Positions 739-57,256 of a stretch of DNA of 64,000 bases are shown here, piece by piece. Position 1 is the stretch's first letter. Every line of letters starts with the position of its first letter. The notes under the pieces are model-generated. The model saw nothing but the letters and a program-made list of their open reading frames with translations, was not told the DNA's origin and did no database searches. The position numbers and the translations under genes were made by a program. Origin of the DNA: Pseudomonadota bacterium (lineage in GTDB: Bacteria; Pseudomonadota; Alphaproteobacteria; SHVZ01); NCBI GenBank assembly GCA_016195085.1, contig JACQAG010000022.1, positions 10,700-74,699 on the forward strand, read 5' to 3'.

Positions 739-1163
739 GCTTTCTGATCGACACCAACATCATCTCGGAGGTTCGCAAGCAAGCGCGCTGCAACCAAAAC
801 GTCGCCCTCTGGTATGGCTCGATCGACGATGGCGAGCTGTATCTGAGCGGGCTGGTGCTGGGTGAGATCCGAAAAGGAATCGAGCTTGCGCGCGGGCGCG
901 ATCCCGAAAAAGCCGCGGCACTGGAAGAGTGGTTGACCGAAGTCGACGTCGCGTTCGGCGAACGTGTTCTGGCGATCGATCGCAGGGTGATGGACGAATG
1001 GGGGCGCATGAGCGCTCGAAGCCCAATCCCGGTGATCGATGGCATGCTTGCTGCGACCGCCAAGGTGCATGACCTGACCTTGGTCACGCGCAACGATGGC
1101 GACGTGTCGGGGCTGGGTGCCAAGGTGCTCAACCCGTTCGAGGCTGTCGCAAGAGACGATTGA
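735..1163 (+). CDS. vapC: PIN-domain ribonuclease toxin VapC/FitB-like
   Basis: MSFLIDTNIISE... start typical of PIN; acidic residues (D6, E, D, D near C-terminus TRNDGD); overlaps antitoxin stop (ATGA). Confidence 0.75.
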   Translation: MSFLIDTNIISEVRKQARCNQNVALWYGSIDDGELYLSGLVLGEIRKGIELARGRDPEKAAALEEWLTEVDVAFGERVLAIDRRVMDEWGRMSARSPIPVIDGMLAATAKVHDLTLVTRNDGDVSGLGAKVLNPFEAVARDD

Positions 1164-1171
1164 CCCGGCGC

Positions 1172-1948
<777 letters not shown>

Positions 1949-1962
1949 GGCTGGCGACGGAC

Positions 1963-2595
1963 TCAGCGGCTCAAGCGCTCGCGGCGCAGGCGCTCGCGGT
2001 TCATCATCAGCCATTGCAGGCTCATGATGGTGATCGCGTTTTCGATCCTGCCGGCCTGGAGCCGCTCGATCGCTTCGGCGTAGTCGAGGACGACGACGCG
2101 GATGTCCTCATGCTCATGGGCGACACCCGCGAGCCCGCCGGAATGGGTGGTGTCGACCAGTGCGGCGAACAGCCAGACCACTTCCGAGGATCCGCCGGGG
2201 CTCGGCATGAACTCATAGAGCGGGATCAGCGCCTCGACGGCGCAGCCGGTCTCCTCCACGCTCTCGCGGCGGGCGACCGCGTCCGGGGCCTCGTCCTTGC
2301 CGATGATGCCGGCGGGCACTTCGATGGTCCAAGGATGGAGTCCGGCGACGAGGGCGGCGGTGCGAAACTGCTCGACCAGCACGACGCGGTCGAGGACCGG
2401 GTCATAGGGCAGCACGCCCGCGGCATGGCCGCGCTGAAAGATCTCGCGCTCGATCTCCTGGCTCCAGCCGCCGGCGAAGAGCCGGTGGCGCAAATGGAAG
2501 CGGTCGACCCGGAAAAACCCCTTGAACACCGTCTCCTTGGATAGGATCGCGTAGCCGGCCGTTTCGGCTTCCGGGGACGGGACATAGGCAACCAT
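1963..2595 (-). CDS. nudF: NUDIX hydrolase, ADP-ribose pyrophosphatase (NudF-like)
   Basis: Nudix box GIIGKDEAPDAVARRESVEETGC; ATG at 2593-2595 (MVAYVPSPE); the longer ORF-track entry reads through the upstream repeat. Confidence 0.75.
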   Translation of the reverse strand: MVAYVPSPEAETAGYAILSKETVFKGFFRVDRFHLRHRLFAGGWSQEIEREIFQRGHAAGVLPYDPVLDRVVLVEQFRTAALVAGLHPWTIEVPAGIIGKDEAPDAVARRESVEETGCAVEALIPLYEFMPSPGGSSEVVWLFAALVDTTHSGGLAGVAHEHEDIRVVVLDYAEAIERLQAGRIENAITIMSLQWLMMNRERLRRERLSR

Positions 2596-2624
2596 CGCTA
2601 GCGGCCGCGTTCGAACGATCGAGT

Positions 2625-2800
2625 GCCCCCACCCGTCGGCGACGGCCGCGCCGGTTCCTCCCGGCGCGGCGTTGGGGATGGGAGGACCCGTCCCCAACCG
2701 TCCCGACCCTCCCCCACGCTCACGCATGGGGGAGGGAGCGGGAGGTCCATCTCGGCTCCCTCCCTCGCCGTCTTCGGCGGGGGAGGGGTGGGGTGGGGGC
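2625..2800. repeat. GC-rich structured palindromic intergenic repeat (subtype 1: CCCCCACCC / GGGGTGGGGG with CCCTCCC / GGGAGGG hairpins)
   Basis: Nested inverted repeats; same family seen at nine other loci in this window. Confidence 0.8.
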
Positions 2801-2825
2801 AATGCGTCATCCGTGATGCTCGTGG

Positions 2826-3377
2826 TTAGCGCACGCGGCGGGTGAAGAAGCGCAAATTCGGCCCGGCCATGCGGTAGAACACCTTGTCGGCCCGCTGCAC
2901 CGGTCCCAGCCGGTCGTAGAAGCGTCGCGCGCGATCGTTCCAGGGATCGGCCGTCCAGTCGATCTGATCGACGCCGCGCTCGCCGGCAAGCTTGGCCAGC
3001 GCATCCATCATCTGCCGTCCCACGCCCTCGCCGCGCCAGCGCTCGGAGACGAATATGTCCTGGATGAAGAAGGTGCCCTGGCAGACCGCAACCGAATACA
3101 CCTGCACGAAGGCCAAGAGGCCGACGGCGATGCCGTCGCGGTCGGCGAGCAGGACCTCGATGCCGGGAGCCGGCGGGCCGGAGCCGTTGGCGGGGCTGAA
3201 GACATTGCTGCGGATGGACTCGGCCATGACCCATCGCGGCGCCGGCGCTTGGATGCCGTAGAAGGCCAAGAGCTCCCGGCTGAGATTTGCGATCGCATCG
3301 GCGTCCGCCGCCGTCGCCAGGCGAATGCCAAGCGTTGACATGCTCCCACAATCGACGAATGCCGCCATATCGGTCAA
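2826..3377 (-). CDS. GNAT family N-acetyltransferase
   Basis: Motif A RWRGEGVGRQMMDALAKLA; true start may be the internal Met at about 3341 (MSTLGIRLATAAD). Confidence 0.7.
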   Translation of the reverse strand: MTDMAAFVDCGSMSTLGIRLATAADADAIANLSRELLAFYGIQAPAPRWVMAESIRSNVFSPANGSGPPAPGIEVLLADRDGIAVGLLAFVQVYSVAVCQGTFFIQDIFVSERWRGEGVGRQMMDALAKLAGERGVDQIDWTADPWNDRARRFYDRLGPVQRADKVFYRMAGPNLRFFTRRVR

Positions 3378-3550
3378 GCACTTGGCCTGTCCCGTGGGTT
3401 TCGGCTAGCGTGATGATTCCGAAGTTCGTCGGCGAACTTCGGAATCTGAATCACGCTAGATTCAATAGAGTAGTGGCCCGCTTATCCCTGAAATTCGCTG
3501 ACGAATTTCAGGAGCGGGACACTAGCGTCGCGGGGGAAAGGGGAGGCCGG

Positions 3551-4081
3551 GTGAAGGTCCTGCACCTGCTGAGACACGCCAAATCGAGCTGGGAGGAGGC
3601 TGGGATCGAGGATCACGACCGCCCGTTGGCGGAGCGCGGCCGCAACGCCGCTGAGGCGATGGGCCGCTATCTCGCCACCGCCGGGATCGATCCGGGACTG
3701 GTGCTCGTGTCCTCCGCCCTGAGAACCCGCGCCACCTTCGAGCTGGCGGCCGAGGAGCTCGCCGAACGGCCAAAAAACCGGGTTCTGCGCGACCTCTATC
3801 TCGCCAGCAGCGCCGAGCTCCAGGCCCGCATCCGGGCGCTCGACGACGCTCTGGGCTCGGTCATGCTCATCGGCCACAACCCCGGCATGCACGATCTCGC
3901 CCGCAGCCTCGCTGGTTCGGGTGATGCCGAGAGCCTGAAGCGGCTCAACCAGAAATACCCGACCGGAGCCCTTGCCAGCCTCGAATTCCCGGTCGCGCGC
4001 TGGCGCCAGGTGAAGTCCGGAGGCGGCCGGCTCGCGCGCTTCGTTTTGCCGAAAGAACTGATGCCAACGAAGCCCCCTTAG
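3551..4081 (+). CDS. sixA: Histidine phosphatase family protein (SixA-like phosphohistidine phosphatase)
   Basis: RHAKS catalytic motif (LLRHAKSSWEE), later GHNPG; GTG start at 3551 inferred, upstream ATG possible. Confidence 0.6.
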   Translation: MKVLHLLRHAKSSWEEAGIEDHDRPLAERGRNAAEAMGRYLATAGIDPGLVLVSSALRTRATFELAAEELAERPKNRVLRDLYLASSAELQARIRALDDALGSVMLIGHNPGMHDLARSLAGSGDAESLKRLNQKYPTGALASLEFPVARWRQVKSGGGRLARFVLPKELMPTKPP

Positions 4082-4158
4082 ATCTGTTTGGAATCGTTCA
4101 AGACTGTCACATAAATCCGGTTGACCACACCTTCTGTGCCCGGCTTAGCTGGCGGCGC

Positions 4159-5772
4159 ATGAGTTCACCCGTGCGCTCCCCTGCAGACGTCGAAGCAGGC
4201 CCCGCTTCGCCTCTCGCCGCCGAGCAGCCACGCGAGGTCGAGCTCAAATTGGCGGTGCCGCTGGAGCATGTCGAGGAGCTCATGCGCCACCCCTTGCTGA
4301 AGCGCAGCTTGGCGCCCGCCCGCAGCGAGCAGCTGTCCAGCGTCTATTTCGATACCCCCGATCTCCGCCTGGCGAAGGACGACGTGACCTTGCGCGTGCG
4401 CCGGCACGGGCGCCGCCACATCCAGACGGTCAAGCTCGGTCCGATGCGGCAAGCCGGCCTGTTTTCCCGCGCCGAATGGGAAGAGCCGGTGCCTACCTCC
4501 AAGCCCGACCCGGCCAGGATCGGCAATCGCAAGCTGCGCCAGCGCATCGATCGGGTCCGCCTCAAGCGCGGGCTGAAGCCGATTTTCGGCACCGAATTCA
4601 AGCGGACGAATTGGCTCCTCAAGGGCCATCGCGGCGGCAAGGTCGCGGTCGGGCTCGACGTCGGCGAGATCAAGACGAGAGAAGGCAGCCGGTCGATCTG
4701 CGAGCTCGAGCTCGAGCTCAAGTCGGGCAAGCCCGGGGAGCTCTTCGAGGTGGCCGAAGCGCTCGCCCGCGACATGCCGCTTCGCCTCGAGTTCGAAAGC
4801 AAGGCCTCCCGCGGCTTCGCCCTCTACCAGGGCGAGGCAAGCCGGCCGGTGAAGGCCTGCGAGGTCGCCTTGGGCGATGTCGACACCACCTTCGCCATGG
4901 CCAAGCGCACCTTCGCCGCCTGCTTCGATCAGCTCGCGGCCAACTGGGGGCCGGCGGTCGACGGCTCCGACCCAGAGGGCGTGCATCAGCTCCGCGTCGC
5001 CATCCGCCGGTTCCGCTCCGCCTTGGGCTTGTTCAGGGAGCTGCTCGATGCCGACGGGCATGCGAAGCTCCGCCTCGAGCTGGGCTGGCTCGCCCAGGAG
5101 CTGGCGCCGGCGCGCGCTTGGGATGTGTTCCTGGCCGAGCTCTTGCCTTCGGGTGCCGGTGCCTTGCCGGTGCCCGCCGTGCGCAAGACGATCGTTCGCC
5201 TCGCCCGCCGGGTCCGCAAGGAGAGCTATGAGCGGGCACGGGCGGCACTCGCCTCCAAACGGGGCGCCGATCTCCTGCTGGCGCTTCGCATCTGGGTGGA
5301 CGAGCCCCGTTGGCGCCCGGCTGGCGAAGAAGCGCATGCCGGCCCGCCGTCCGCGGCGGAGGCGATGTCGGCCAGGGACTTCGCCCGCCACATGCTGCAC
5401 CGGCGGCACAAGCGGGTCCGCCGCTTCGCCCGCAACGCCGCCGAGCTCTCTCCGGAAGCCCTCCATGCGCTTCGCATCCAGGTGAAGAAGCTGCGCTACG
5501 CGGCCGAGTTCGTGAGCGGGCTGTTCCCGCGCCGGCGGGTCAAGTCCTATCTTCGCGATCTCGCCCGGCTGCAGCAGGATCTGGGTGCCATAAATGACGC
5601 GGTGACCTTGCCGCCGCTCGCCGGCCAGCTCCTGGAGCGCGATCGCGACGCGCGGCTGGCGCAGGCGGTGGGCGCGCTCATCGGCTGGCATGCCAGCCGC
5701 GCGGTCTCGGCGCGCACGCATCTGGGCCCGCTGCTCGAGGAGTTCGCCGACGCCCGCAAGTTTTGGAGCTGA
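4159..5772 (+). CDS. CYTH domain plus CHAD domain protein (triphosphate tunnel metalloenzyme, inorganic triphosphatase-like)
   Basis: N-terminal EVELKLAV...YFDTPDLRL...RVRR CYTH signature; C-terminal His/Arg-rich helical CHAD region (HQLRVAIRRFRSAL, HALRIQVKKLRYAAEF). Confidence 0.75.
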   Translation: MSSPVRSPADVEAGPASPLAAEQPREVELKLAVPLEHVEELMRHPLLKRSLAPARSEQLSSVYFDTPDLRLAKDDVTLRVRRHGRRHIQTVKLGPMRQAGLFSRAEWEEPVPTSKPDPARIGNRKLRQRIDRVRLKRGLKPIFGTEFKRTNWLLKGHRGGKVAVGLDVGEIKTREGSRSICELELELKSGKPGELFEVAEALARDMPLRLEFESKASRGFALYQGEASRPVKACEVALGDVDTTFAMAKRTFAACFDQLAANWGPAVDGSDPEGVHQLRVAIRRFRSALGLFRELLDADGHAKLRLELGWLAQELAPARAWDVFLAELLPSGAGALPVPAVRKTIVRLARRVRKESYERARAALASKRGADLLLALRIWVDEPRWRPAGEEAHAGPPSAAEAMSARDFARHMLHRRHKRVRRFARNAAELSPEALHALRIQVKKLRYAAEFVSGLFPRRRVKSYLRDLARLQQDLGAINDAVTLPPLAGQLLERDRDARLAQAVGALIGWHASRAVSARTHLGPLLEEFADARKFWS

Positions 5773-5807
5773 CCTCTCCTCGAAGTAGAACTGCGGCGCG
5801 CCTGTCG

Positions 5808-5995
5808 GCCCCTCTCCCGCCTGGGGGTGGACTGTGGGAGGGGGTGAGGATCACCCCCTCCCCAACCCTCCCCGGGGCGGGAGAGGGCTGGGGTGAGGGT
5901 CGGACGGGAAGCGTCGATGACCTTCGCCGAAATTCTTGCGACCCTCACCCGCCTCGCTCGCGCTCGGCACCCTCTCCCGCGGTGCGGGAGAGGGG
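5808..5995. repeat. GC-rich structured palindromic repeat, composite (subtype 2 with CCCTCACCC / GGGTGAGGG and CCCTCTCCCGC / GCGGGAGAGGG)
   Basis: Nested inverted repeats between convergent CYTH-CHAD and SDR genes. Confidence 0.8.
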
Positions 5996-6014
5996 CATTC
6001 GGCAAATTCTGCGT

Positions 6015-6821
6015 CTAACCGACTGTGTCGCGGGCGACCTTGGCGGCGATGGTGAGGCCGCCGTCGATGACGATGGTGGCGCCGGTCACGTAGCGGCTGG
6101 CGTCGCTGGCGAGGTAGACGGCGATCCCCGAGAAGTCCGCGGGCACGCCCCAGCGCCTGATGGCAAGCCGCGGCATGTGCTCGTTCGTGAACTCTTCGCT
6201 GTTGATGCGCTCCGTGGTGAGCGGCGTCTCGATATAGCCGGGCACCACCGTGTTGGCGCGGATCGCGTGCTGGCCCAGCTCGACGGCGAGGCTCCGCATC
6301 ATCGACTCCACACCCGCCTTGGCGGCGGCATAGTGCTCGACCAGGGGCTGGCCCATGATGGCGAAGGCGCTGCCGGTCGCCACCAGCGATCCGCCTTGCT
6401 TCCGCCCTACCATCGCCCGGGCGGCGGCCTTGAGGGTATAGAAGACGCCATCCAGATTGACGTCGAGCACGCGGCGCCATTCCGCCTGGGTCATCTCGAT
6501 GAAGCTCCGATGCGGGCCGGCGCGGCCGCTGACGCCGGCATTGGCGAAGCACGCATCGAGGCCGCCCAAAGCCGCAAGCGTGCTCTCCATCGCCCGCTCG
6601 ACCTCCGCCTCGCGGCTCACATCCAAGAGCTCCGCGTGCACCTTGCGGCCATGGCGGGAGAGCTGCCGGGCCGCGGCTTCGTTGCGATCCTTCCGCATGC
6701 CCCAGATCGCCACATCGGCCCCGGCTTCGGCCAGCCCCTCGGCCATGCCGAGGCCGATCCCGCTGTTGCCGCCGGTGACGAGCGCCGCCCGGCCCCGCAA
6801 ATCGAACATTTTCGCCGTCAT
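6015..6821 (-). CDS. SDR family oxidoreductase (KduD/FabG-like)
   Basis: TGGNSGIGLG Rossmann motif; YxxxK active-site region (YAAAKAG). Confidence 0.8.
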   Translation of the reverse strand: MTAKMFDLRGRAALVTGGNSGIGLGMAEGLAEAGADVAIWGMRKDRNEAAARQLSRHGRKVHAELLDVSREAEVERAMESTLAALGGLDACFANAGVSGRAGPHRSFIEMTQAEWRRVLDVNLDGVFYTLKAAARAMVGRKQGGSLVATGSAFAIMGQPLVEHYAAAKAGVESMMRSLAVELGQHAIRANTVVPGYIETPLTTERINSEEFTNEHMPRLAIRRWGVPADFSGIAVYLASDASRYVTGATIVIDGGLTIAAKVARDTVG

Positions 6822-6863
6822 GCCTGCCCCCGGATGCGGATTTTCGCTATAATGGCATGATCG

Positions 6864-7166
6864 GTGACGGCTCCTAAGAGCCTAGCGGGAGAACCGGCTT
6901 TGAATACCGAGCAGGCCCTCGATGTGCTGCACGAGGCGTTGCTGGTGACCTTGATCATCTCGGCGCCGATGATGCTCATCGGCATGATCGTCGGTACCGT
7001 CATTTCTCTCATCCAGGCGATGACCCAGATCCAGGAAACCAGCCTCGCCTTCATCCCGAAGATGCTGGCGCTGTTCATCGCGCTCTCGCTGTTTCTGCCG
7101 TTCATGCTGGGCGAGCTCGCCAAGTTCACCGAAAACATCATGGACCGCATCGTCAGCATCAGTTGA
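6864..7166 (+). CDS. fliQ: Flagellar biosynthetic protein FliQ (type III export apparatus)
   Basis: Two-TM 88-aa core, same layout as FliQ; start is GTG at 6864 or TTG at 6900 with a GGGAGA SD. Confidence 0.8.
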   Translation: MTAPKSLAGEPALNTEQALDVLHEALLVTLIISAPMMLIGMIVGTVISLIQAMTQIQETSLAFIPKMLALFIALSLFLPFMLGELAKFTENIMDRIVSIS

Positions 7167-7975: not shown

Positions 7976-9046
7976 TTGTCCGAAGACGACTCAGGCAAAA
8001 CCGAAGAACCGAGCGGCAAAAAGCTCGGCGAAGCGCGCTCGCGCGGCCAGACCTGGGCCTCGCGCGAGGTCGGCAGCTGGGCGATGCTGAGCGTGCTGCT
8101 GGCGATGGTGTATTTCCTGCTGCCGCGCATGGTGCGCGACGTCGGCTCGGTGGCGCTTCCCTTCATCGAGAAGCCGGACCAGATCTCGCTCGATCAGGGC
8201 AATCTCGGCAATGTCCTGACCGAGACGATGCTCGCCCTGGTGCCGCCGCTGACCATTCCTCTCATCCTGGTCCTGATCGCCTCGATCGCGCCATCCATCG
8301 CGCAGAGCGGCTTCATCTTCACCACCCATAACTTGAAGCCGAGCTTCAGCAAGCTGTCGCTGGCCGGCGGCCTCCAGCGCCTGGTCTCGGTGCAGGCGAT
8401 GCTCGACATGGCGAAGAACATCGGCAAGATGCTGATCGTCGGCTCCGTCGCCGGCTTCATCGCCTTTCCGGAGCTGAGCCATATCGAGTCCCTGGTAACG
8501 GCGGAGATCGTCGACGCCGCGCAGGAGATGCAATCGATCGTCGTCGATATTCTGGGAGGCACGCTGGTGGTGCTCGCCATAATGGCGGTGGGCGACGTCT
8601 TCTACCAGCGCCACAAGTTCTACAAGCAGCTGCGCATGACCAAGCAGGAGGTCAAGGACGAGTTCAAGCAGGCCGAAGGCGATCCCACGGTCAAAGGCCG
8701 CTTGCGGCAGATCCGCTTCGACCGTGCCCGCGCGCGCATGATGCAAGCCGTGCCCAAGGCCGACGTGGTGATCACCAACCCAACCCATTATGCGGTGGCA
8801 CTCGAATACAAGCCGGACAAGATGGACGCCCCGAAGCTGACGGCGAAGGGTGCCGACCTGATCGCCAAGCGCATTCGCGAGGTCGCCGAGGAGAACGGCG
8901 TGCCGGTCGTGGAGAACCCGCCGATCGCGCGCGCCCTCTATGCGAGCGTCGAGATCGACCAGGAAATTCCCCCCGAGCACTACAAGGCGGTGGCCGAGAT
9001 CATCTCCTATGTCTACAAGCTCAAGCGCAAGACCGTCCCGGCTTAA
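7976..9046 (+). CDS. flhB: Flagellar biosynthetic protein FlhB
   Basis: N-terminal EKTE(E)PS..KKL motif, four TM segments, NPTH autocleavage site (VVITNPTHYAVALEY). Confidence 0.85.
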   Translation: MSEDDSGKTEEPSGKKLGEARSRGQTWASREVGSWAMLSVLLAMVYFLLPRMVRDVGSVALPFIEKPDQISLDQGNLGNVLTETMLALVPPLTIPLILVLIASIAPSIAQSGFIFTTHNLKPSFSKLSLAGGLQRLVSVQAMLDMAKNIGKMLIVGSVAGFIAFPELSHIESLVTAEIVDAAQEMQSIVVDILGGTLVVLAIMAVGDVFYQRHKFYKQLRMTKQEVKDEFKQAEGDPTVKGRLRQIRFDRARARMMQAVPKADVVITNPTHYAVALEYKPDKMDAPKLTAKGADLIAKRIREVAEENGVPVVENPPIARALYASVEIDQEIPPEHYKAVAEIISYVYKLKRKTVPA

Positions 9047-11153
9047 TCGGCTCGGCGCTTGGCTTCCCTTTGCGGTCGTGCCGGCCGCCTGCGCACTTGC
9101 CCTCGCGCTTGCCGTTCTCTCCCCCTGGCCCCAGGCGGCCGGGATCGCGCTTGCCGGCGCGGTTCTCCTCGCCGCCGCGCTCGCCGGAAGGTGGCTCGGC
9201 GAGCGCGACGGCAGCCAGCCGGCTCGCGCGGTCACGCAAGGCTTCGAGGCGGGTATCGCCAGCGTCGTGACCGACGCCGCCGGCCGCGCCTTGGCCGCCA
9301 ATGCCGCCGCGCGGCGCATCCTTGCCGAGGGCCGGCAGCAGCCGCGTCAGCGCCGGCTGGTGATCGACGAGGCCCGCTTGGCGGCCACCTTCGCCGATCC
9401 CGACGGCCGCATCGGCCACCTCGCCCGCGAAGCCAGGGCGGGACACCGCCACAGCGTCGATTTGCGCCTGGATCCCGGCGTCGGTCGCGGCTGGCTCGAG
9501 GTGACGGCAGCGCCGGCGCCGGGCCAGAAGGGCTGGGTCGTCTGGCGGTTTGCCGAGGCCAATCGGCGGATCGAGGCGAGCCTGGACCTGGTCGCCGAGC
9601 GCAGCCACAGCGCCGAGCTCCGGGTGACGCTGGCCTCGATCGAGCAGCGGTTTCAGCGGTTCTTCGAGGAGCTTCCGGTCGGCTGGGCGGTGGTCGACGG
9701 AGAGGGCAGGATCGAGGATTCGAACCGCGCTTTCCGCGAGCTCGTCGGCGTGCCGCTCGATCCGCGCGGCCGCAATTTCGCGACCATGGTCAGAGCGGAG
9801 GATCAGGGACGCGTCGCCGCCCGGATCGAGGAGGCGATGCGGGGCGGAACCCAGACCGCGCCGGAGGAGGTGCGGTTCTCCGGCACCTCCGAGCGCGTCG
9901 CCTCGCTCTATGTCGGGCGGATCGACACGCCCGACGACAGCCCGGCCGGGCTGGTGCTGCACCTCCTCGACATCAGCACGCTCAAGGCCCTGGAAAGCCA
10001 GTTCGTGCAGTCGCAGAAGATGCAGGCGATCGGCCAGCTCGCCGGCGGCGTCGCCCACGACTTCAACAATCTCTTGACGGCGATGATCGGCTATAGCGAT
10101 CTCTTGCTGCTCCGCCACCGTCCGGGCGATCCGTCCTTCGCCGACATCATGCAGGTGAAGCAGAACGCCAACCGTGCCGCCAACCTGGTGCGCCAGCTCC
10201 TCGCCTTCTCGCGCCAGCAGACGCTGAGGCCGCGGGTCTTGAACCTGACCGATGTGCTGGCGGAGCTGTCGCATCTGTTGCGGCGGCTCTTGGGCGACAC
10301 CCTTCAGCTCGAGGTCGTGCATGGCCGCGACCTGAAGCCGGTCAAGGTCGACCAGGGCCAGTTCGAGCAGGTCGTCATCAACCTCGCAGTCAATGCGCGC
10401 GACGCCATGCACCCGGGCGGGCGGCTGGCGATCAATACCGCCAACATCCGGATCGAGTATGCCCAGAGCCGCGGTGCCGAGGTGGTTCCGGCCGGCGACT
10501 ATGTCGAGATCCGCGTCGCCGACACCGGCTCCGGCATAGCGCCCGAGCATCTGGGGCGCATCTTCGAGCCGTTCTTCTCGACCAAGCCGGTGGGATCGGG
10601 GACCGGACTCGGCCTTTCCACGGTCTACGGCATCGTCAAGCAGACCGGCGGCTTCGTGTTCGTCGAATCCATGCTCGGCGGCGGCACGTCGTTCACCATC
10701 TGGCTTCCCGTCCATGCCGGCGGCGTCGTGGAGGAGGCGGCCGAGGAGGAGGAGGGGCGCCGGCAGGTGCGCGACCTGACGGGTGCTGGCACCATCCTTC
10801 TGGTCGAGGACGAGGACCCGGTCAGGCTGTTCAGCGCCCGCGCGCTCCGCAGCAAGGGCTACAAGGTGTTCGAAGCCAGATCCGGAGAAGCCGCCCTCGA
10901 TCTCTTGCTGGAGGAGACGATGCCGGTCGATCTGCTCATCACCGACATGATGATGCCCACCCTCGACGGCCCGAGCTTGGTCAAGCTGGCGCGCGAGCGG
11001 CGCCCGGACCTGAAGGTGGTCTGCATCTCCGGCTACACCGAAGACACGCTCCGCGAACGCATCCCCCAGGACGACATCACCGTCTTCCTGGCGAAGCCCT
11101 TCAGCCTGAAACAGCTGGCACAGACGGTGAAAGAGGTGCTGACCCAGGAGTGA
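9009..11153 (+). CDS. cckA: Hybrid sensor histidine kinase/response regulator (two N-terminal TM, PAS, HisKA, HATPase, C-terminal REC); candidate CckA orthologue
   Basis: H-box GGVAHDFNNLLTAMIGYSDLL, N/G boxes (DTGSGI, GTGLGLS), receiver ILLVEDEDPVR...LLITDMMMP..LAKPF; ATG at 9009 overlaps flhB end by 38 nt. Confidence 0.55.
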   Translation: MSTSSSARPSRLNRLGAWLPFAVVPAACALALALAVLSPWPQAAGIALAGAVLLAAALAGRWLGERDGSQPARAVTQGFEAGIASVVTDAAGRALAANAAARRILAEGRQQPRQRRLVIDEARLAATFADPDGRIGHLAREARAGHRHSVDLRLDPGVGRGWLEVTAAPAPGQKGWVVWRFAEANRRIEASLDLVAERSHSAELRVTLASIEQRFQRFFEELPVGWAVVDGEGRIEDSNRAFRELVGVPLDPRGRNFATMVRAEDQGRVAARIEEAMRGGTQTAPEEVRFSGTSERVASLYVGRIDTPDDSPAGLVLHLLDISTLKALESQFVQSQKMQAIGQLAGGVAHDFNNLLTAMIGYSDLLLLRHRPGDPSFADIMQVKQNANRAANLVRQLLAFSRQQTLRPRVLNLTDVLAELSHLLRRLLGDTLQLEVVHGRDLKPVKVDQGQFEQVVINLAVNARDAMHPGGRLAINTANIRIEYAQSRGAEVVPAGDYVEIRVADTGSGIAPEHLGRIFEPFFSTKPVGSGTGLGLSTVYGIVKQTGGFVFVESMLGGGTSFTIWLPVHAGGVVEEAAEEEEGRRQVRDLTGAGTILLVEDEDPVRLFSARALRSKGYKVFEARSGEAALDLLLEETMPVDLLITDMMMPTLDGPSLVKLARERRPDLKVVCISGYTEDTLRERIPQDDITVFLAKPFSLKQLAQTVKEVLTQE

Positions 11154-11164
11154 GGCCGCGCGGC

Positions 11165-11347
11165 TCACCCTCTCGCTGCCGGCTGCACCAGATTGGCAAA
11201 CAGACGGAAGGCGTCGGGAACCAGCCAATCCGGCTGGTGGGCGAGCGCCAGGCTGACATGGGTGTGGCGGCCGGATCCGATCGGCGCCGACAAGAGCCCG
11301 CCTTCGAGCGGGTCCTCGCCGGGGTCGGCCATGGCGAGGAGCGGCAC
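11165..11347 (-). pseudogene. Orphaned 3' fragment of the PIG-L deacetylase gene (60-aa ORF duplicating the C-terminus of the 843-aa protein)
   Basis: MPLLAMADPGEDPLEGGLLSAPIGSGRHTHVSLALAHQ...FANLVQPAARG is about 88% identical to residues near the C-terminus of ORF 12091..14622. Confidence 0.65.
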
Positions 11348-11370
11348 GTAGGCCGGACCCGGTCGGTCAG
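11176..11370. repeat. Direct repeat copy A (about 190 bp, roughly 88% identical to 12153..12345) flanking the HepT/MntA cassette
   Basis: Aligned by eye: ctgccggctgcaccagattggc...gctgacatgggtgtggcggccgg...tcggccatggc. Confidence 0.75.
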
Positions 11371-11376
11371 CGTAAG

Positions 11377-11724
11377 TTACTTTTTTCCATGTTCCGCCAG
11401 CGCCCTCAACTGGCTGCTGAGCTCAGGCAGCTTCGCCTGGATCACATCCCAGACGATCTCCCAGTTGACGCCCGCATAGTGGTGGATGAGGCGGTCGCGC
11501 ATGCCGGCGACGTCCTGCCACCGAATTGCCCTGTGCTTTTTGCGAAAATCCGGAGAGAACCCCTTTGCGGCCTCGCCGACGATTTCGAGGTTCCGCACGA
11601 CGGCATCCTGCACCATCGTGTCCTCGAGAAACCGCTGATAGCTCAGGCCGCCGGTGTAGCGGCCAATTCTGCCGATCGCTTCGACGATGTCCTGGACAAG
11701 CTGCGCATCCTGGCGCTTAGCCAT
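11377..11724 (-). CDS. hepT: HepT-like (DUF86) nucleotidyltransferase-substrate-binding toxin
   Basis: 115 aa; conserved RNLEIVGEAAK and R..LIHHY motifs typical of HepT; overlaps partner gene; lower-GC cassette. Confidence 0.7.
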   Translation of the reverse strand: MAKRQDAQLVQDIVEAIGRIGRYTGGLSYQRFLEDTMVQDAVVRNLEIVGEAAKGFSPDFRKKHRAIRWQDVAGMRDRLIHHYAGVNWEIVWDVIQAKLPELSSQLRALAEHGKK

Positions 11725-12037
11725 ATGCGAGAGCGCTCCGGATGTCGTCAGCGATTTCCTTTACGCGAATGCTCTCGAGTCCATCGGGCGTTAGGATTTC
11801 CACCTTCCTTCCGAGGAGCTTCTCCAGGTGCTCCGATAGACCCAGGAAGTTGTCGTAGGTCGGCCGCTCGAACTCGACGAGAAGGTCGATGTCGCTCCGC
11901 TCGTTCTGCTTACCTTTGGCGTAGGAGCCAAAGAGGCCGATCTTTCGTACGGAATACCTCTCAAGCAGCTCGGCGTTCTGCCGTAGCGTGCGAAGGATTC
12001 CCTGCCGGGTAAGTTCGCTTTTCGACGGTTTTTTCAT
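11717..12037 (-). CDS. mntA: MntA-like minimal nucleotidyltransferase antitoxin
   Basis: 106 aa; GLFGSYAKG...DIDLLVEF nucleotidyltransferase motif; 8-bp overlap with hepT. Confidence 0.7.
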   Translation of the reverse strand: MKKPSKSELTRQGILRTLRQNAELLERYSVRKIGLFGSYAKGKQNERSDIDLLVEFERPTYDNFLGLSEHLEKLLGRKVEILTPDGLESIRVKEIADDIRSALAYG

Positions 12038-12090
12038 TGCCGTGCGCTGCGCCTATGGACGCATGATGATAGCGCAGTTTGGCGGCTTGA

Positions 12091-14622
12091 TTAAGGGTTC
12101 GATGATCTGTCGAGGGCGGCGGCTGCTCCACCCAGGCGCCCGCCACCTATCCCTGCCGGCTGCACCAGATTGGCGAAGAGGCGGAAGGCGCCGGGAACCA
12201 GCCGATCCAGCTGATGGGCCAGCGCCAGGCTGACATGGGTGTGGCGGCCGGCTCCGATCGGCGCCGACAGAAGCCCGCCTTCGAGCGGCGCTTCACCGGG
12301 GTCGGCCATGGCCAGCAGCGGCACATAAGCCGGATCCCAGGATGCAGCGAAGGAGAGGCCGCGCTCCTTCTGCCATCCCGCCCAATCGGCGGGGCCGATG
12401 GCATTGGGATAGGTCAGGAGCGGATGCCCGGACGCCAGAATCCGGATCGGTGCCGCCGGATCGGCCACCCGCCAACGCAGCGACGGCTGGCCGATGGCGA
12501 TGCGCTTGGGCGGCGTCACCGCCGCGTCCCAGCCATCGCCGGGCCGGTGATATTGGCTGACGAGATGCCCGCCTCGGCTCACATAGTCCTTGAGCCGCGC
12601 CGGCGCTGCCGCCGGAAGCCGGCCGAAGGCCTTGATGCCGATGACGATGGTCTCGAAACGGCCGAGATCGCCGCCGAGGATCTCGTCGTCGGAGAGCCGC
12701 TCCACCTGAAGCCCGATCTCTTCGAGCCAGCCGGCGACGCGATCGAGGCCGCCTTCGACATAGCCGATACGAACCCCCGGGGGAAGCGCCAGGTCGACCA
12801 CCAGAAGATCGAGAGTGGCGGGCTCGATCCAGCCGGTGGTGCCGATATGGGGATAGTGCTGACGGCGCACGCGCCCATGGGCGATACCGTCGGCCACCAC
12901 CTGCCAGCTTGCGTGACCCGGGGCTGGCGTCGCCGCGGTGAGGCTGATCTCGGCGGCCTCAAACGGACCGAGGCGAAGCGGAGGTGCCACCGCCTCGGCA
13001 CCGAGGAGCCGGAGCCGGGTCTGGATCGGCGCCGGCGTGTGGTTGCGCGCCCCGATGCGGACCTCGAGGCGCGGCTGCGAGCCGGCGACCACCACCCGGG
13101 CCTCAGGCGCCGGTGTCAGCTCCAGGGGCGGGACCTCGAGGGGCAGGATTTCCGGCGCCACCGCATCCTCGATGTCGACGCCATCGACGGTGTAGCCGAG
13201 CCGGCCTTCGATCGGCGCATTGGCGGCCAGCGGATCGAAGCGCTGCCGAAACGGCGCGTGGGATCCCGGGATGTATCGAAGCGTGCCCTCTGCCGTCGGC
13301 CCCTCGACCGTGCCGGCTTCGCTGGTCGCGGACCCGCGAACCGTGAGCGGCTTCCCGCCTTGGAAAAGGACAAGGCGTCCCGTCGCGGGCTGGCCCAGGA
13401 CCACCATTGCCGGCAGCTCCAGGCGGGCGACCAGGGAGAGGGCGAGCCGGCTCGCCCGGGCAAGCTGGCGGCGCTTGATGCCGAGCCGGTGCTCCAAATC
13501 CTCGGCGATCGTCCGTGCGAGCCCACCCAGAGTCTGCAGGACATGGTCGATGGCGCCCAACGCTTCATGCACCGAAGCGGCGACGCGATCGAAGTCCGGG
13601 AAGGCCTCGATCGCCGCCTCGATCGCCCGGTCGGCTTGGCGCAAGGCATCGCTGGGGGCGCCCTTCATGCCGGTCGCCAGATCGCCGAGCCGCCGCGGCA
13701 ACCCATCGAAGATCGATCCCTCGGCATTCACCCGCTGCAGCCGCGTTTGCGCCAGATTGAGCGCGATCGCCGGCGCGTCTTCCTCAGGGCGCCAGCGCCC
13801 CATGCCCTGGCTTCGGTGACAGAGGCGCGACCATTCGCCGATCTCGGCGTAAGTGGCGCCGAGCCAGCGATCGAAGCCGCCGACATCGACGGTGAGCGTC
13901 GCCGGCGGCGGCGGCTCGGCGTCGTCATAGGTCGCACCGGCGCCGGAATAAGCCGGCAGATACAGCTTGGCGATGCGCCATGGGCGGAGGCCGGCTTCGA
14001 TCTGCTCGGGGAAGCGGGCCGGGTCGGCGGCCGCCTCGAAGGCCTTGAAGGTGGCGCGGGTGACGGCGCGATGATGGCCGTGCTGTCCCGGCACATCGAG
14101 GAAGGTGGGCGACACGATGTCGGGGCGGCTCCGGCGGATGGCCTCCACCAATCGCTCCAGGAGCCGGTCCTCGCCCCAGATTGCGGTGGTCGCCTCCGGC
14201 GTCTTGGCGAAGCCGAAATCGCTTAAACGATCGCCGAACCCTTGCTCCAGCCAGTCAACCTCCATGCCGAGAACGGCGGCGGCTCTCTCCATCTCATGGG
14301 AGCGTATGAGCGCCAGCGCCTCGCCGGATTCCGGGCCGAGCGCGTTCTGTCCGCCGCCGCCGCGGGTGGCCGAGACGTAGATCACGCGGGCACCGTCGCC
14401 TTTGGCGAGCCGGGCCAAGAGCGCGCTCGTCTCGTCGTCGGGATGCGCTCCGGTCATCATGAAGCTCACCACCGAGCGCAGCGGCAGCAAGGCCTGCCAT
14501 AGAAGGAGGAGTGGGCTCTCCCGCGACTGGCGAAGGATGCGGCGTTGCTCTGGAGTCATGGCAAGATCCTGGCGAATAGGCTCGCCAAGGCAAGCGAATT
14601 GCTGCGGGATGACGATTGACAT
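12091..14622 (-). CDS. Large PIG-L/LmbE-family deacetylase domain protein (N-terminal deacetylase, long central region, C-terminal ThuA/GATase1-like region); C-terminus remodelled by cassette insertion
   Basis: N-terminal AHPDDE motif (MMTGAHPDDETSALL) plus HGHHRA; 843 aa. Confidence 0.6.
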   Translation of the reverse strand: MSIVIPQQFACLGEPIRQDLAMTPEQRRILRQSRESPLLLLWQALLPLRSVVSFMMTGAHPDDETSALLARLAKGDGARVIYVSATRGGGGQNALGPESGEALALIRSHEMERAAAVLGMEVDWLEQGFGDRLSDFGFAKTPEATTAIWGEDRLLERLVEAIRRSRPDIVSPTFLDVPGQHGHHRAVTRATFKAFEAAADPARFPEQIEAGLRPWRIAKLYLPAYSGAGATYDDAEPPPPATLTVDVGGFDRWLGATYAEIGEWSRLCHRSQGMGRWRPEEDAPAIALNLAQTRLQRVNAEGSIFDGLPRRLGDLATGMKGAPSDALRQADRAIEAAIEAFPDFDRVAASVHEALGAIDHVLQTLGGLARTIAEDLEHRLGIKRRQLARASRLALSLVARLELPAMVVLGQPATGRLVLFQGGKPLTVRGSATSEAGTVEGPTAEGTLRYIPGSHAPFRQRFDPLAANAPIEGRLGYTVDGVDIEDAVAPEILPLEVPPLELTPAPEARVVVAGSQPRLEVRIGARNHTPAPIQTRLRLLGAEAVAPPLRLGPFEAAEISLTAATPAPGHASWQVVADGIAHGRVRRQHYPHIGTTGWIEPATLDLLVVDLALPPGVRIGYVEGGLDRVAGWLEEIGLQVERLSDDEILGGDLGRFETIVIGIKAFGRLPAAAPARLKDYVSRGGHLVSQYHRPGDGWDAAVTPPKRIAIGQPSLRWRVADPAAPIRILASGHPLLTYPNAIGPADWAGWQKERGLSFAASWDPAYVPLLAMADPGEAPLEGGLLSAPIGAGRHTHVSLALAHQLDRLVPGAFRLFANLVQPAGIGGGRLGGAAAALDRSSNP
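12153..12345. repeat. Direct repeat copy B (inside the 3' end of the intact PIG-L gene)
   Basis: See copy A. Confidence 0.75.
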
Positions 14623-15945: not shown

Positions 15946-15957
15946 GCGGACGACAAG

Positions 15958-16122
15958 ACCCTCACCCGCCTCGCTAACGCTCGGCACCCTCTCCCGCAGG
16001 GGGTGGGATTTGGGAGGGGGTGCGCCGCACCCCTCCCCGATCCTCCCCGGGCGGGAGAGGGGCCTCAAATACTCGTCCTCATCTCCCTCTCCCGCGCCGC
16101 GGGAGAGGGTTGGGGTGAGGGT
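15958..16122. repeat. GC-rich structured palindromic repeat, composite (subtype 2 plus a GGGAGGGGGTG core)
   Basis: Between SBP and permease genes; shares the module GACCCTCACCCGCCTCGCT..CGCTCGGCACCCTCTCCCGC with loci at 5962 and 27984. Confidence 0.8.
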
Positions 16123-16158
16123 CGTTCTTAGGGCTACACCGAAACGCAACGGGACCGC

Positions 16159-19354: not shown

Positions 19355-19380
19355 TCTTGGATTTGGAGATGCTAGCGATA

Positions 19381-19482
19381 GCCCCCACCCTAGCCCTCCC
19401 CCACATGCGTGGGGGAGGGAAAAGAAGGGCGCAGCTCTTACTCCCTCCCTCGCCGAAGGCGGGGGAGGGCCGGGGTGGGGGC
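19381..19482. repeat. GC-rich structured palindromic repeat (subtype 1)
   Basis: GCCCCCACCC..CCCTCCCCC..GGGGGAGGG..GGGGTGGGGGC. Confidence 0.8.
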
Positions 19483-19511
19483 ATGCGCGTTCCCGAGAGT
19501 CGGTCCTAGCC

Positions 19512-22400: not shown

Positions 22401-22526
22401 GCCAGGGCAGGACCTCCGCCGCGATCGGATCGGTGTCCCGCCGTCCCAGTCCCGGGCACGCGCAGGGTGGGACAGGCGTGGAGTGCACCCCTTGGGTTAG
22501 GCAAAGGCATTAGGGACTAGCGAACT

Positions 22527-22628
22527 GCCCCCACCCCGTCCCTCCCCCGCATTCGCGGGGGTGGGTGTCGGAGAGGCGACATCGTGCCCCCTCCCTCGCC
22601 GCAGGCGGGGGAGGGATGGGGTGGGGGC
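22527..22628. repeat. GC-rich structured palindromic repeat (subtype 1)
   Basis: CCCCCACCCCGTCCCTCCCCCGC..GCGGGGG....GGGGGAGGGATGGGGTGGGGG. Confidence 0.8.
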
Positions 22629-22746
22629 ATGCGCCGCCGCCCCCGGCCCTGGACAGGGCCAGATTCGCACGGTAGAAGCGGGCTCGCCCGCCAGCCGGTA
22701 TGGCTCGCCCTCCGGCGGCGGCCCTCCAGAGTTCGCGGGTCTGCCG

Positions 22747-27977: not shown

Positions 27978-27983
27978 CTCCGA

Positions 27984-28119
27984 CCCTCACCCGCCTCGCT
28001 GCCGCTCGGCACCCTCTCCCGCCCGGGGAGGGTTGGGGAGGGGGTGATCCTCACCCCCTCCCATATTCCACCCCCGGCGGGAGAGGGAGGGGCCCGCGTC
28101 ATCGCGGGAGGGTGAGGGG
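27984..28119. repeat. GC-rich structured palindromic repeat, composite (subtype 2)
   Basis: GACCCTCACCCGCCTCGCTGCCGCTCGGCACCCTCTCCCGC...GGGAGGGTGAGGGG. Confidence 0.8.
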
Positions 28120-31628: not shown

Positions 31629-31663
31629 CACGGGCCACTACCAAGATTGAATGCCCCCACCCT

Positions 31664-31756
31664 GACCCTCCCCCGCCTTCCGGCGGGGGAGGGAATTGGA
31701 TGCTGCCTTTGACTCCCTCCCTCGCGCGTAAGCGCGGGGGAGGGCGGGGGTGGGGG
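31664..31756. repeat. GC-rich structured palindromic repeat (subtype 1)
   Basis: GCCCCCACCCTGACCCTCCCCCGC..GGGGGAGGG...GGGGGTGGGGGC. Confidence 0.8.
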
Positions 31757-31814
31757 CATTCGGAGCGAACACCCACGGTGCGTTCATCGCCGCAGCCATG
31801 ACCGGGCGCCGCTT

Positions 31815-54327: not shown

Positions 54328-54345
54328 CGCGACAAACTCAGACTG

Positions 54346-54447
54346 CCCCCACCCCGACCCTCCCCCACGCTGACGCGCGGGGGAGGGAGCAAGAGGTGAC
54401 CTCTCTACTCCCTCCCCCAGCTTGCTGGGGGAGGGTCGGGGTGGGGG
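54346..54447. repeat. GC-rich structured palindromic repeat (subtype 1, canonical copy)
   Basis: CCCCCACCCCGA-CCCTCCCCC-loop-GGGGGAGGG-spacer-CCCTCCCCC-loop-GGGGGAGGG-TCGGGGTGGGGG. Confidence 0.85.
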
Positions 54448-54463
54448 CGATCGGCGCTCGGCT

Positions 54464-57137: not shown

Positions 57138-57141
57138 TAGG

Positions 57142-57240
57142 ACCCTCACCCCGACCCTCTCCCCCGGTGCGGGAGAGGGGGCACGACACTCGCCCTCTAC
57201 ACCCTCTCCCGCATCGCGGGAGAGGGCTGGGGTGAGGGTC
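57142..57240. repeat. GC-rich structured palindromic repeat (subtype 2, canonical copy)
   Basis: CCCTCACCCCGA-CCCTCTCCC-loop-GGGAGAGGG...CCCTCTCCCGC-loop-GCGGGAGAGGG-CTGGGGTGAGGG. Confidence 0.85.
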
Positions 57241-57256
57241 GTAGTGTCTGGTGGCT

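Follow-up and report, generated by a model that had tools for sequence, protein, structure and literature searches.

Nobusato et al. (2000, Gene 259:99) reportedly described insertion with long target duplication of restriction-modification gene complexes. By genome comparison, such insertions have been found for restriction-modification systems of all types (Furuta, Abe and Kobayashi 2010, PMC2853133; PMC3874152); the repeats are 45 to 423 bp long and 93 to 100% identical, no mobility genes are present, and several of the repeats overlap the 3′ end of a gene (PMC2853133). The mechanism has not been established, and the authors tentatively invoke DNA breakage by the cargo (PMC2853133, PMC3874152). 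Chromosomal toxin-antitoxin modules show exceptional horizontal mobility (PMC2701414) and mostly lack a mobility function; their insertion is largely unexplained. Recent mobility between strains has been noted for MNT-HEPN modules, without a mechanism (PMC2701414), and our literature searches returned no report of flanking direct repeats or of an insertion route for HepT/MntA or other toxin-antitoxin cassettes. Here we describe a HepT/MntA cassette in a 64-kb stretch of DNA from a Pseudomonadota bacterium of the alphaproteobacterial lineage SHVZ01 (GenBank assembly GCA_016195085.1, contig JACQAG010000022.1, positions 10,700 to 74,699; hereafter the window). The cassette occupies the very 3′ end of a PIG-L-family gene, where two diverged copies of the gene end bracket it, and we lean towards the view that it arrived by a single-crossover integration of a small circular or ends-in DNA carrying the cassette together with the gene end of a relative.

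All coordinates follow the numbering of the window, and comparison loci are labelled L plus a number. We call the copy of the PIG-L gene end that lies within the gene arm B and the displaced copy arm A. The features of the locus are as follows.

8940..11153, plus strand: convergent hybrid histidine kinase gene, the native downstream neighbour abutting arm A, outside the element
11169..11360, minus strand: arm A, displaced copy of the PIG-L gene end, with an open frame at 11165-11347
11377..11724, minus strand: hepT, HEPN RNase toxin with the RX4HXY motif (Pfam HepT-like PF01934, E 2e-28)
11717..12037, minus strand: mntA, minimal nucleotidyltransferase antitoxin (NTP_transf_2, E 9e-16)
12066..12094, minus strand: promoter-like element TTAATC-N17-TATCAT, conserved in cassette relatives
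12091..14622, minus strand: PIG-L-family (LmbE-like) deacetylase gene, 843-aa open reading frame (ORF) with a PIG-L domain and a remodelled C-terminus
12095..12145, minus strand: spacer encoding most of the new 20-aa tail
12146..12337, minus strand: arm B, the last ~63 codons of the PIG-L-family gene, joined to the gene body

The two arms align without gaps over 192 to 193 nt with 22 mismatches (88.5 to 89% identity; blastn E 1.7e-61) and are spaced 977 nt start to start. They form the sole local direct repeat within the window, and a search covering the window found no third copy, so within this stretch the repeat is locus specific. Weak in-register similarity suggests that it may extend to 11373. 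An earlier note on this DNA, made by eye, had described a cassette between copies of ~190 bp and ~88% identity and had named identity below 70% as grounds for abandoning the claim; the alignment (192 nt, 88.5%) bears the description out. The copies had been placed at 11176-11370 and 12153-12345, which is essentially right but shifted by a few bases. Between the arms lies a 785-bp module composed of the promoter-like site, mntA and hepT, the sole genes there. The GC content falls from ~0.70 to 0.55-0.60 over 11500-12100 (0.56-0.60 for the operon, 0.70 for the host), in agreement with the lower GC that had been noticed, and GC at third codon positions (GC3) is 0.71 in mntA and 0.78 in hepT, compared with a host mean of 0.87. 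As the note had also stated, no recombinase gene is nearby: we found no integrase, transposase or other recombinase gene in the 785-bp insert or within ~6 kb. Scores for terminal inverted repeats at the cassette ends were at chance level in the window and at 14 other loci. No attC-like site or inverted repeat was found at the cassette ends, although a dedicated attC model was not run, and no integron integrase was present among the neighbouring genes checked.

Comparison with homologues distinguishes the two copies of the gene end. Twenty-four PIG-L homologues end 2 to 5 residues past NLVQ (QPAASR-stop, QPAG-stop or QPA-stop). Arm A, whose open 60-aa frame (11165-11347, minus strand) is in register with the PIG-L C-terminus, ends in QPAARG-stop and so has the length typical of the family. 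Between its stop and that of the kinase gene (11151-11153) there are 11 nt; the earlier note had recognized this 60-aa fragment correctly but had counted 12 nt. The PIG-L ORF at 12091-14622 encodes 843 aa (822 aa in the NCBI annotation). In arm B the native stop is lost and the frame reads on for 20 codons, giving a tail (..QPAGIGGGRLGGAAAALDRSSNP) that exceeds all 24 inspected homologues by ~20 aa; the remodelled C-terminus that had been described is real. The new stop, TAA at 12091-12093, falls inside the -35-like hexamer of the promoter-like element of the cassette. Arm B agrees with the family consensus at every one of the five internal replacement differences (GEAPL, HQLDRLVPG), whereas arm A has A to D, A to S, L to P, R to W and G to D at these conserved positions (GEDPL, HQPDWLVPD). 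The changes in arm A are mostly radical and mostly GC to AT, and they include the invariant G of VPG. Judged by its family-typical stop and by the derived residues at conserved positions, arm A is the displaced native end, still on its native downstream junction with the kinase gene and decaying, as the note had proposed in calling it the ancestral 3′ end. By the same comparison arm B is the working gene end, with a remodelled tail. The spacer contains a GC-rich segment of ~40 nt (12106-12145) that is unlike both the cassette relatives and the DNA to the left of arm A, and this segment may be donor intergenic DNA. Homology between the spacer at 12094-12145 and the kinase end or intergenic DNA was rejected as not significant (P 0.19-0.4); the duplication therefore stops at the stop codon.

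The divergence between the arms is mostly synonymous. The 60 codons common to both arms show 13.5 synonymous and 5.5 non-synonymous differences (dS 0.33, dN 0.044, omega 0.13), with 3/5/12 mismatches at codon positions 1/2/3. These figures bear on the chief rival explanation, under which an illegitimate insertion duplicated ~190 to 205 bp of resident sequence in situ, for instance by fill-in of widely staggered nicks or by template switching where a fork had stalled close to the gene end, and the arms, identical at first, then diverged, with allelic replacement or gene conversion contributing now and then. We regard this explanation as possible but doubtful. Neutral decay of arm A predicts that ~57% of the differences should be non-synonymous, whereas 5 to 6 of 19 are (P 0.008-0.025). 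Arm A has a GC3 of 0.85 and arm B one of 0.78, against the host mean given above, and synonymous sites with A/T in arm B and G/C in arm A (six) outnumber the opposite (three). Because the lower GC3 is in the functional arm and not in the pseudogene arm, the synonymous differences run counter to decay of arm A. The mismatches are evenly spread, and the longest identical run, 31 nt at 11244-11274, is no longer than expected (P = 0.34). Given the mostly synonymous divergence, the arms resemble a pair of functional alleles that became different while each belonged to a working gene, with a few later changes in arm A, rather than an ageing target duplication. The earlier note had excluded a transposase-type target duplication, a view that a repeat 192 nt long, 11% diverged and synonymously biased upholds. 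A step in GC3 within the PIG-L gene was rejected as a marker of an imported tract, since the last ~120 codons (0.73-0.77) are matched by codons 541-630 and the step is not significant.

In two independent collections, we surveyed 80 HepT-relative loci from species-representative genomes and 80 from metagenome contigs for direct repeats that bracket the mntA-hepT pair. In the first collection, 10 of 80 cassettes were bracketed (repeats of at least 40 nt and at least 80% identity), compared with 9 of 12,674 random intervals at the same loci; in the second, 10 of 58 cassettes were bracketed (at least 20 nt), compared with 40 of 6,793 control intervals. With the collections pooled and a gene-aware control, the count was 17 of 137 HepT cassettes versus 2 of 427 ORFs of similar size (~12% versus 0.5%; odds ratio 30, P = 1.7e-9), with host-derived repeats of 40 to 200 nt that in most instances are the end of an adjacent gene. 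This excess over the control indicates that the repeats are coupled to insertion. Most HepT cassettes have no repeats, and short near-perfect repeats of 20 to 30 nt add a few cases (23/23 at L025 and 29/30 at L075). Fifteen other bracketed cassettes are as minimal as the one in the window.

Across loci the arms range from 20 to ~200 nt and are 83 to 96% identical. In the arms of 15 loci no 9-mer occurs at more than two loci, and there is no conserved junction or common motif; no tRNA, tmRNA or Rfam family was matched in the arms of the other loci. Coding arms are the end of an unrelated neighbouring gene that differs from locus to locus. They comprise the 3′ end of a DUF188 gene (L031), of a small unassigned gene (L022) and of a cupin gene (L100), and the 3′ end plus terminator of an aldo-keto reductase gene (L077) and of a prismane/CODH gene (L136/L126). 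The arm at L046 is the 5′ end of glnS with 46 upstream bases, and that at L038 is a hairpin after a GNAT gene. In most coding cases the arm boundaries fall at stop codons or terminators. This pattern argues against duplication in situ, although selection could also yield it.

Two proposals did not hold. The interval 5706-7038 at L033 was rejected as a bracketed cassette; it contains two tandem MntA-HepT pairs, and the 5′ regions of the two mntA genes are 93% identical over 136 nt, indicating a tandem duplication of the module. A rule that the cassette is co-oriented with the gene whose end is duplicated was rejected on account of L136, where the two are convergent. Several further arrangements were observed. 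At L017 an AAA_14 + DUF4143 ATPase gene (3407-4756, minus strand), cargo other than a toxin-antitoxin pair, has the same architecture, with arms at 3329-3378 and 4832-4881 (50 nt, 92%) that are the 3′ end of a PD-(D/E)XK nuclease gene (4831-5652, minus strand). At L072, from a Chthonomonadales metagenome-assembled genome (MAG), three ~93-nt repeats (4952-5048, 5601-5693 and 6446-6542) separate three nucleotidyltransferase/HEPN cassettes in an integron-like array, with no tRNA or Rfam match and no attC-like palindrome seen. One of the only two bracketed control ORFs lies at L098 between 4074-4133 and 4964-5023 (60 nt, 83%); this ORF may represent a further, uncharacterized kind of small mobile cassette.

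The locus most similar to that in the window is L046, where the arms are 198 nt long and 88% identical, with evenly spread mismatches (4/2/11 by codon position). An outgroup was available in L177, whose GlnRS is 93% identical in protein and 90% in nucleotide sequence. Counted over 150 coding bases, unique changes number 5 synonymous and 3 non-synonymous in the displaced arm and 7 and 2, respectively, in the in-gene arm, with only 4 changes shared or outgroup specific. The displaced arm has thus evolved no faster than the functional one (P = 0.014 versus neutral decay), which again speaks against duplication in situ, and by these counts the L046 arms appear to have split about as early as the L046 and L177 species. 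In six loci pooled, arm mismatches were distributed 15/11/34 by codon position (P = 1.7e-4 versus equal thirds). In a close relative of the L046 organism (L176-L181, ~1-1180), the region upstream of glnS holds a different two-gene module, of DUF5674 and a 117-aa protein. In at least five samples the contigs break off ~1165 nt upstream of glnS without exception, which suggests a variable hotspot or an unresolved repeat at that position.

Judged by its domains and motifs, the mntA-hepT pair in the window is a typical type VII toxin-antitoxin module. The upstream gene, mntA, overlaps hepT by 8 nt (11717-11724). MntA matches PF01909 (NTP_transf_2) and PF18765 (Polbeta family) and, in a structure search, the minimal nucleotidyltransferase 1WOT, and its GS..DxD motif (GLFGSYAKGKQNERSDIDLLV) conforms to GSX10DXD. 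In HepT the RX4HXY motif is present as RDRLIHHY, with R76, H81 and Y83 invariant in 18 relatives. A single-sequence comparison of HepT with the PDB gave only spurious designed-repeat matches; a profile search succeeded, aligning the motif to that of Shewanella oneidensis HepT (5YEP_B/7AER). HepT is inactivated as an RNase when MntA adenylylates the tyrosine of its RX4HXY motif (PMC7641770). According to the HepT/MntA family literature, loss of the operon frees the stable toxin, so that deletion is penalized.

The limits of the cassette were defined by relatives at unrelated loci and coincide with the promoter and the two ORFs. The nearest relatives (HepT 74 to 83% identical) occur in unrelated contexts and have no flanking repeats. 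Nucleotide homology to L088 (79%) begins 63 nt upstream of mntA and breaks off 41 nt short of the hepT stop, which itself lies 16 nt from arm A. The element TTAATC-N17-TATCAT (12094-12066, minus strand) is common to L088, L082 and L089 at unrelated loci. It is this conservation, and not the strict sigma-70 scan, that identifies the element as promoter-like: the scan of 10900-12700 made no call, and the element scores 8 of 12 matches. A scan of the same interval for intrinsic terminators found none, including after hepT. At L082 (~2500-6700) and L089 (~1100-5700), where HepT is 72 to 75% identical to that of the window, the neighbours are ResIII helicase, DUF6876, DUF87/TrwB-like, DNA methylase and ThsB-TIR genes, as in a mobile element or a defence island.

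The insert in the window has as neighbours the kinase gene, flagellar export genes, an ABC transporter and a lyase. The window also contains dispersed 80- to 115-nt repeats in both orientations (palindromic, REP/MITE-like), which are 76 to 95% identical and mostly intergenic. They lie at 2702-2806, 5805-5982, 15957-16125, 19372-19488, 22517-22634, 27982-28087, 31649-31765, 54337-54453 and 57141-57242.

How might such an arrangement arise? A conjugation screen in E. coli that was aimed at homology-facilitated illegitimate recombination (HFIR) yielded mostly single-crossover integrations of a circle, and these left 109- to 950-bp duplications of the homologous segment (PMC3240628). On HFIR itself, PMC5361080 cites de Vries and Wackernagel (2002) and Prudhomme et al. 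(2002). In the single-crossover integration that we favour for the window, a circular or ends-in linear DNA would carry the cassette and the adjoining ~200-bp gene end of a related organism, at ~11% nucleotide divergence (~0.3 per synonymous site). One homologous crossover with the resident gene end would follow, for which the identical stretch at 11244-11274 would be long enough to allow RecA-type pairing, and would leave the homologous segment on both sides of the insert. The in-gene copy would thereby be joined to the donor's gene-cassette junction, losing its native stop and ending in the -35-like box, while the other copy would stay on the native downstream DNA and decay. Addiction to the toxin-antitoxin pair, together with the 11% mismatch, would make deletion between the arms difficult. 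A single crossover is needed in this scheme because homologous recombination by double crossover gives no duplication. The scheme would explain the duplication, the allele-like divergence and the host-like GC-rich spacer next to arm B, and the arm boundaries at stops and terminators would mark the natural gene-cassette junction of the donor. The earlier note had proposed that the gene end came from a related donor by homologous recombination; a foreign end is favoured by the synonymous bias, the GC3 values and L046, but the event would have to be a single crossover and not generic homologous recombination. More tentatively, HepT/MntA and other small addictive cassettes, such as the AAA_14/DUF4143 gene at L017, could be recombinase-free mobile units that each carry a short piece of the neighbouring host gene and re-insert in relatives by one homologous crossover, with diverged direct repeats of a gene end as the result.

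Several observations weigh against a single crossover with a diverged donor. An exact-protein look-up and a homologue search yielded no cassette-free allele or donor, and no circular form of the cassette was seen. The exact PIG-L protein is restricted to two source contigs, its closest homologue among 5.8 billion proteins is 61% identical, and a scan of the genome collection with HepT found nothing closer than 65%. In the ~60%-identical PIG-L homologues the downstream gene is an ABC-transporter gene and not the kinase, so synteny is uninformative. The statistics for the window and L046 rest on ~20 substitutions per locus, with P of ~0.01 to 0.03 each. In the published restriction-modification cases the two arms resemble each other more than they resemble the empty site (PMC2853133), and must therefore have been born identical. 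L126 and L136 represent one insertion found in two relatives, and in each genome the two arms have lineage-specific substitutions in common; the arms at L126, L072 and L031 are mosaics of a perfect core and diverged edges. Gene conversion or recombination between arms therefore occurs and blurs their history. Finally, one mntA-hepT family of 75 to 82% nucleotide identity is found at unrelated loci in 11 actinobacterial species (L022, L023, L027, L034, L035, L051, L055, L061, L067, L070 and L071), at position ~5700-6300 in each (130-717 in L071), and the homology does not reach beyond the two ORFs. There must accordingly be a primary insertion step that does not depend on homology, and repeats could already arise at that step.

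Some of these points count directly in favour of duplication in situ. It is the published reading for restriction-modification systems, with their arms of 45 to 423 bp and 93 to 100% identity (PMC2853133); the near-perfect short arms at L025 and L075 suit it, as does the occurrence of one cassette family at unrelated loci, which means that insertion without a homologous donor must happen. The arms at L126 and L136 persist and co-evolve, and arm A of the window decays at conserved residues.

The L126 metagenome contig (1085 nt) consists of exactly arm, cassette and arm, with arms at 1-117 and 962-1078 that are perfect over 90 nt and then have 6 mismatches in 30 nt; the locus is that of L136. 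Among the 60%-identical PIG-L loci, a comparison of L094 (11034-11683) with L092 (10862-11141) shows a MazE/PIN pair in L094 in place of 244 nt of L092 intergenic DNA, without a flanking repeat, and some toxin-antitoxin insertions therefore leave no duplication.

In E. coli, e14 and phage 21 are integrative elements at icd that carry a replacement gene end. The window could be the remnant of a site-specific integrative element of this type at the 3′ end of a gene, from which all but the toxin-antitoxin pair was later deleted. Its topology is the same, with the element-borne end fused and the native end displaced, the divergence between the ends is mostly synonymous, and toxin-antitoxin pairs are often the last survivors of decaying islands. 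We nevertheless consider such a remnant improbable: neither the 785 bp nor the surrounding ~6 kb holds an integrase gene or fragment, the limits of the cassette coincide with a promoter and two ORFs, and the fifteen other minimal bracketed cassettes lie at unrelated genes without a common core. A relic of a tandem PIG-L paralogue or a local rearrangement, in which the second copy was mostly deleted and the toxin-antitoxin pair landed there by chance, would account for the ortholog- or paralog-like, synonymously biased divergence of the arms. It is very unlikely, as it requires three independent events, leaves no other trace of a second copy in the window and does not fit the bracketing of 12% of HepT cassettes versus 0.5% of control ORFs. 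An assembly artefact joining two strain variants through the cassette is the least probable explanation of all, for even though the source is a MAG and the arms resemble two alleles, the same arrangement is present on contigs of 61 kb and 274 kb, the cassette junctions share no repeat that could mislead a de Bruijn graph, and long-read and isolate assemblies among the other loci contain similar structures.

The locus is a fully resolved example of an architecture found at ~12% of HepT/MntA cassettes, 30-fold over control genes. Such insertions rewrite host proteins, here with a 20-residue tail that ends in a promoter box, and leave behind in-frame gene-end fragments that annotation pipelines may miscall. 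If recombinase-free units of the kind proposed do exist, the movement of chromosomal toxin-antitoxin modules that lack mobility genes would have a general explanation not described so far. DNA cleavage by the cargo would then not be required for insertion with long target duplication, and addiction to the toxin-antitoxin pair would block the reverse reaction. The two-allele reading predicts a 977-bp circle and empty alleles in read-level data.

Compared with known systems, the pair resembles described HepT/MntA type VII systems in its domain pair, gene order, gene overlap and RX4HXY and GSX10DXD motifs (PMC7641770), and in the strain-specific presence of such systems at otherwise syntenic loci (PMC2701414). 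Insertion sequences, miniature inverted-repeat transposable elements (MITEs) and transposons differ in that the cassette has no terminal inverted repeats and its arm lengths vary from 20 to ~200 nt. Integron cassettes and CALIN arrays, which often carry toxin-antitoxin pairs, are likewise small promoter-poor cassettes between repeats, but the repeats in the window are in-frame host coding sequence and not attC, and the arms vary by locus. As in insertions of e14 and phage 21, the gene appears to have acquired a foreign 3′ end that differs mostly at synonymous sites, and its own end lies beyond the insert; those elements, however, encode an integrase and recombine at a defined core, whereas here there is no integrase and no core common to the loci. 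The single-crossover experiments in E. coli likewise gave inserts flanked by homologous duplications without a site-specific recombinase, an outcome that would account for arms representing the alleles of donor and recipient, but they used laboratory constructs, and in the present case neither circle nor donor was seen. Classical HFIR usually produces deletions with 3- to 10-bp microhomology and not duplications.

The nearest match is the long target duplication of restriction-modification systems. In both cases addictive cargo of lower GC and few genes, without a mobility gene, lies between long, locus-specific host repeats of variable length (tens to hundreds of bp) that are often at the 3′ end of a gene, and the window shares with the published insertions repeats of more than 30 bp, the lack of a mobility gene and an insert of less than 20 kb. 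The earlier note had called the locus a concrete picture of module mobility without a recombinase; the anatomy it described is right, but insertions of this kind are already on record for restriction-modification systems (PMC2853133). Because the toxin of the type VII pair carried here cleaves RNA and not DNA, the suggestion made for those systems, that double-strand breaks by the cargo drive insertion, cannot apply. A phenomenon described only for restriction-modification systems thus extends to cargo unable to cut DNA, which narrows the possible mechanisms to host recombination. The arms also differ, being 11% diverged with a synonymous bias where the published arms are 93 to 100% identical. 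What the analysis adds is evidence that HepT/MntA cassettes often have this architecture and that two functional alleles can form its arms, as appears to be the case here.

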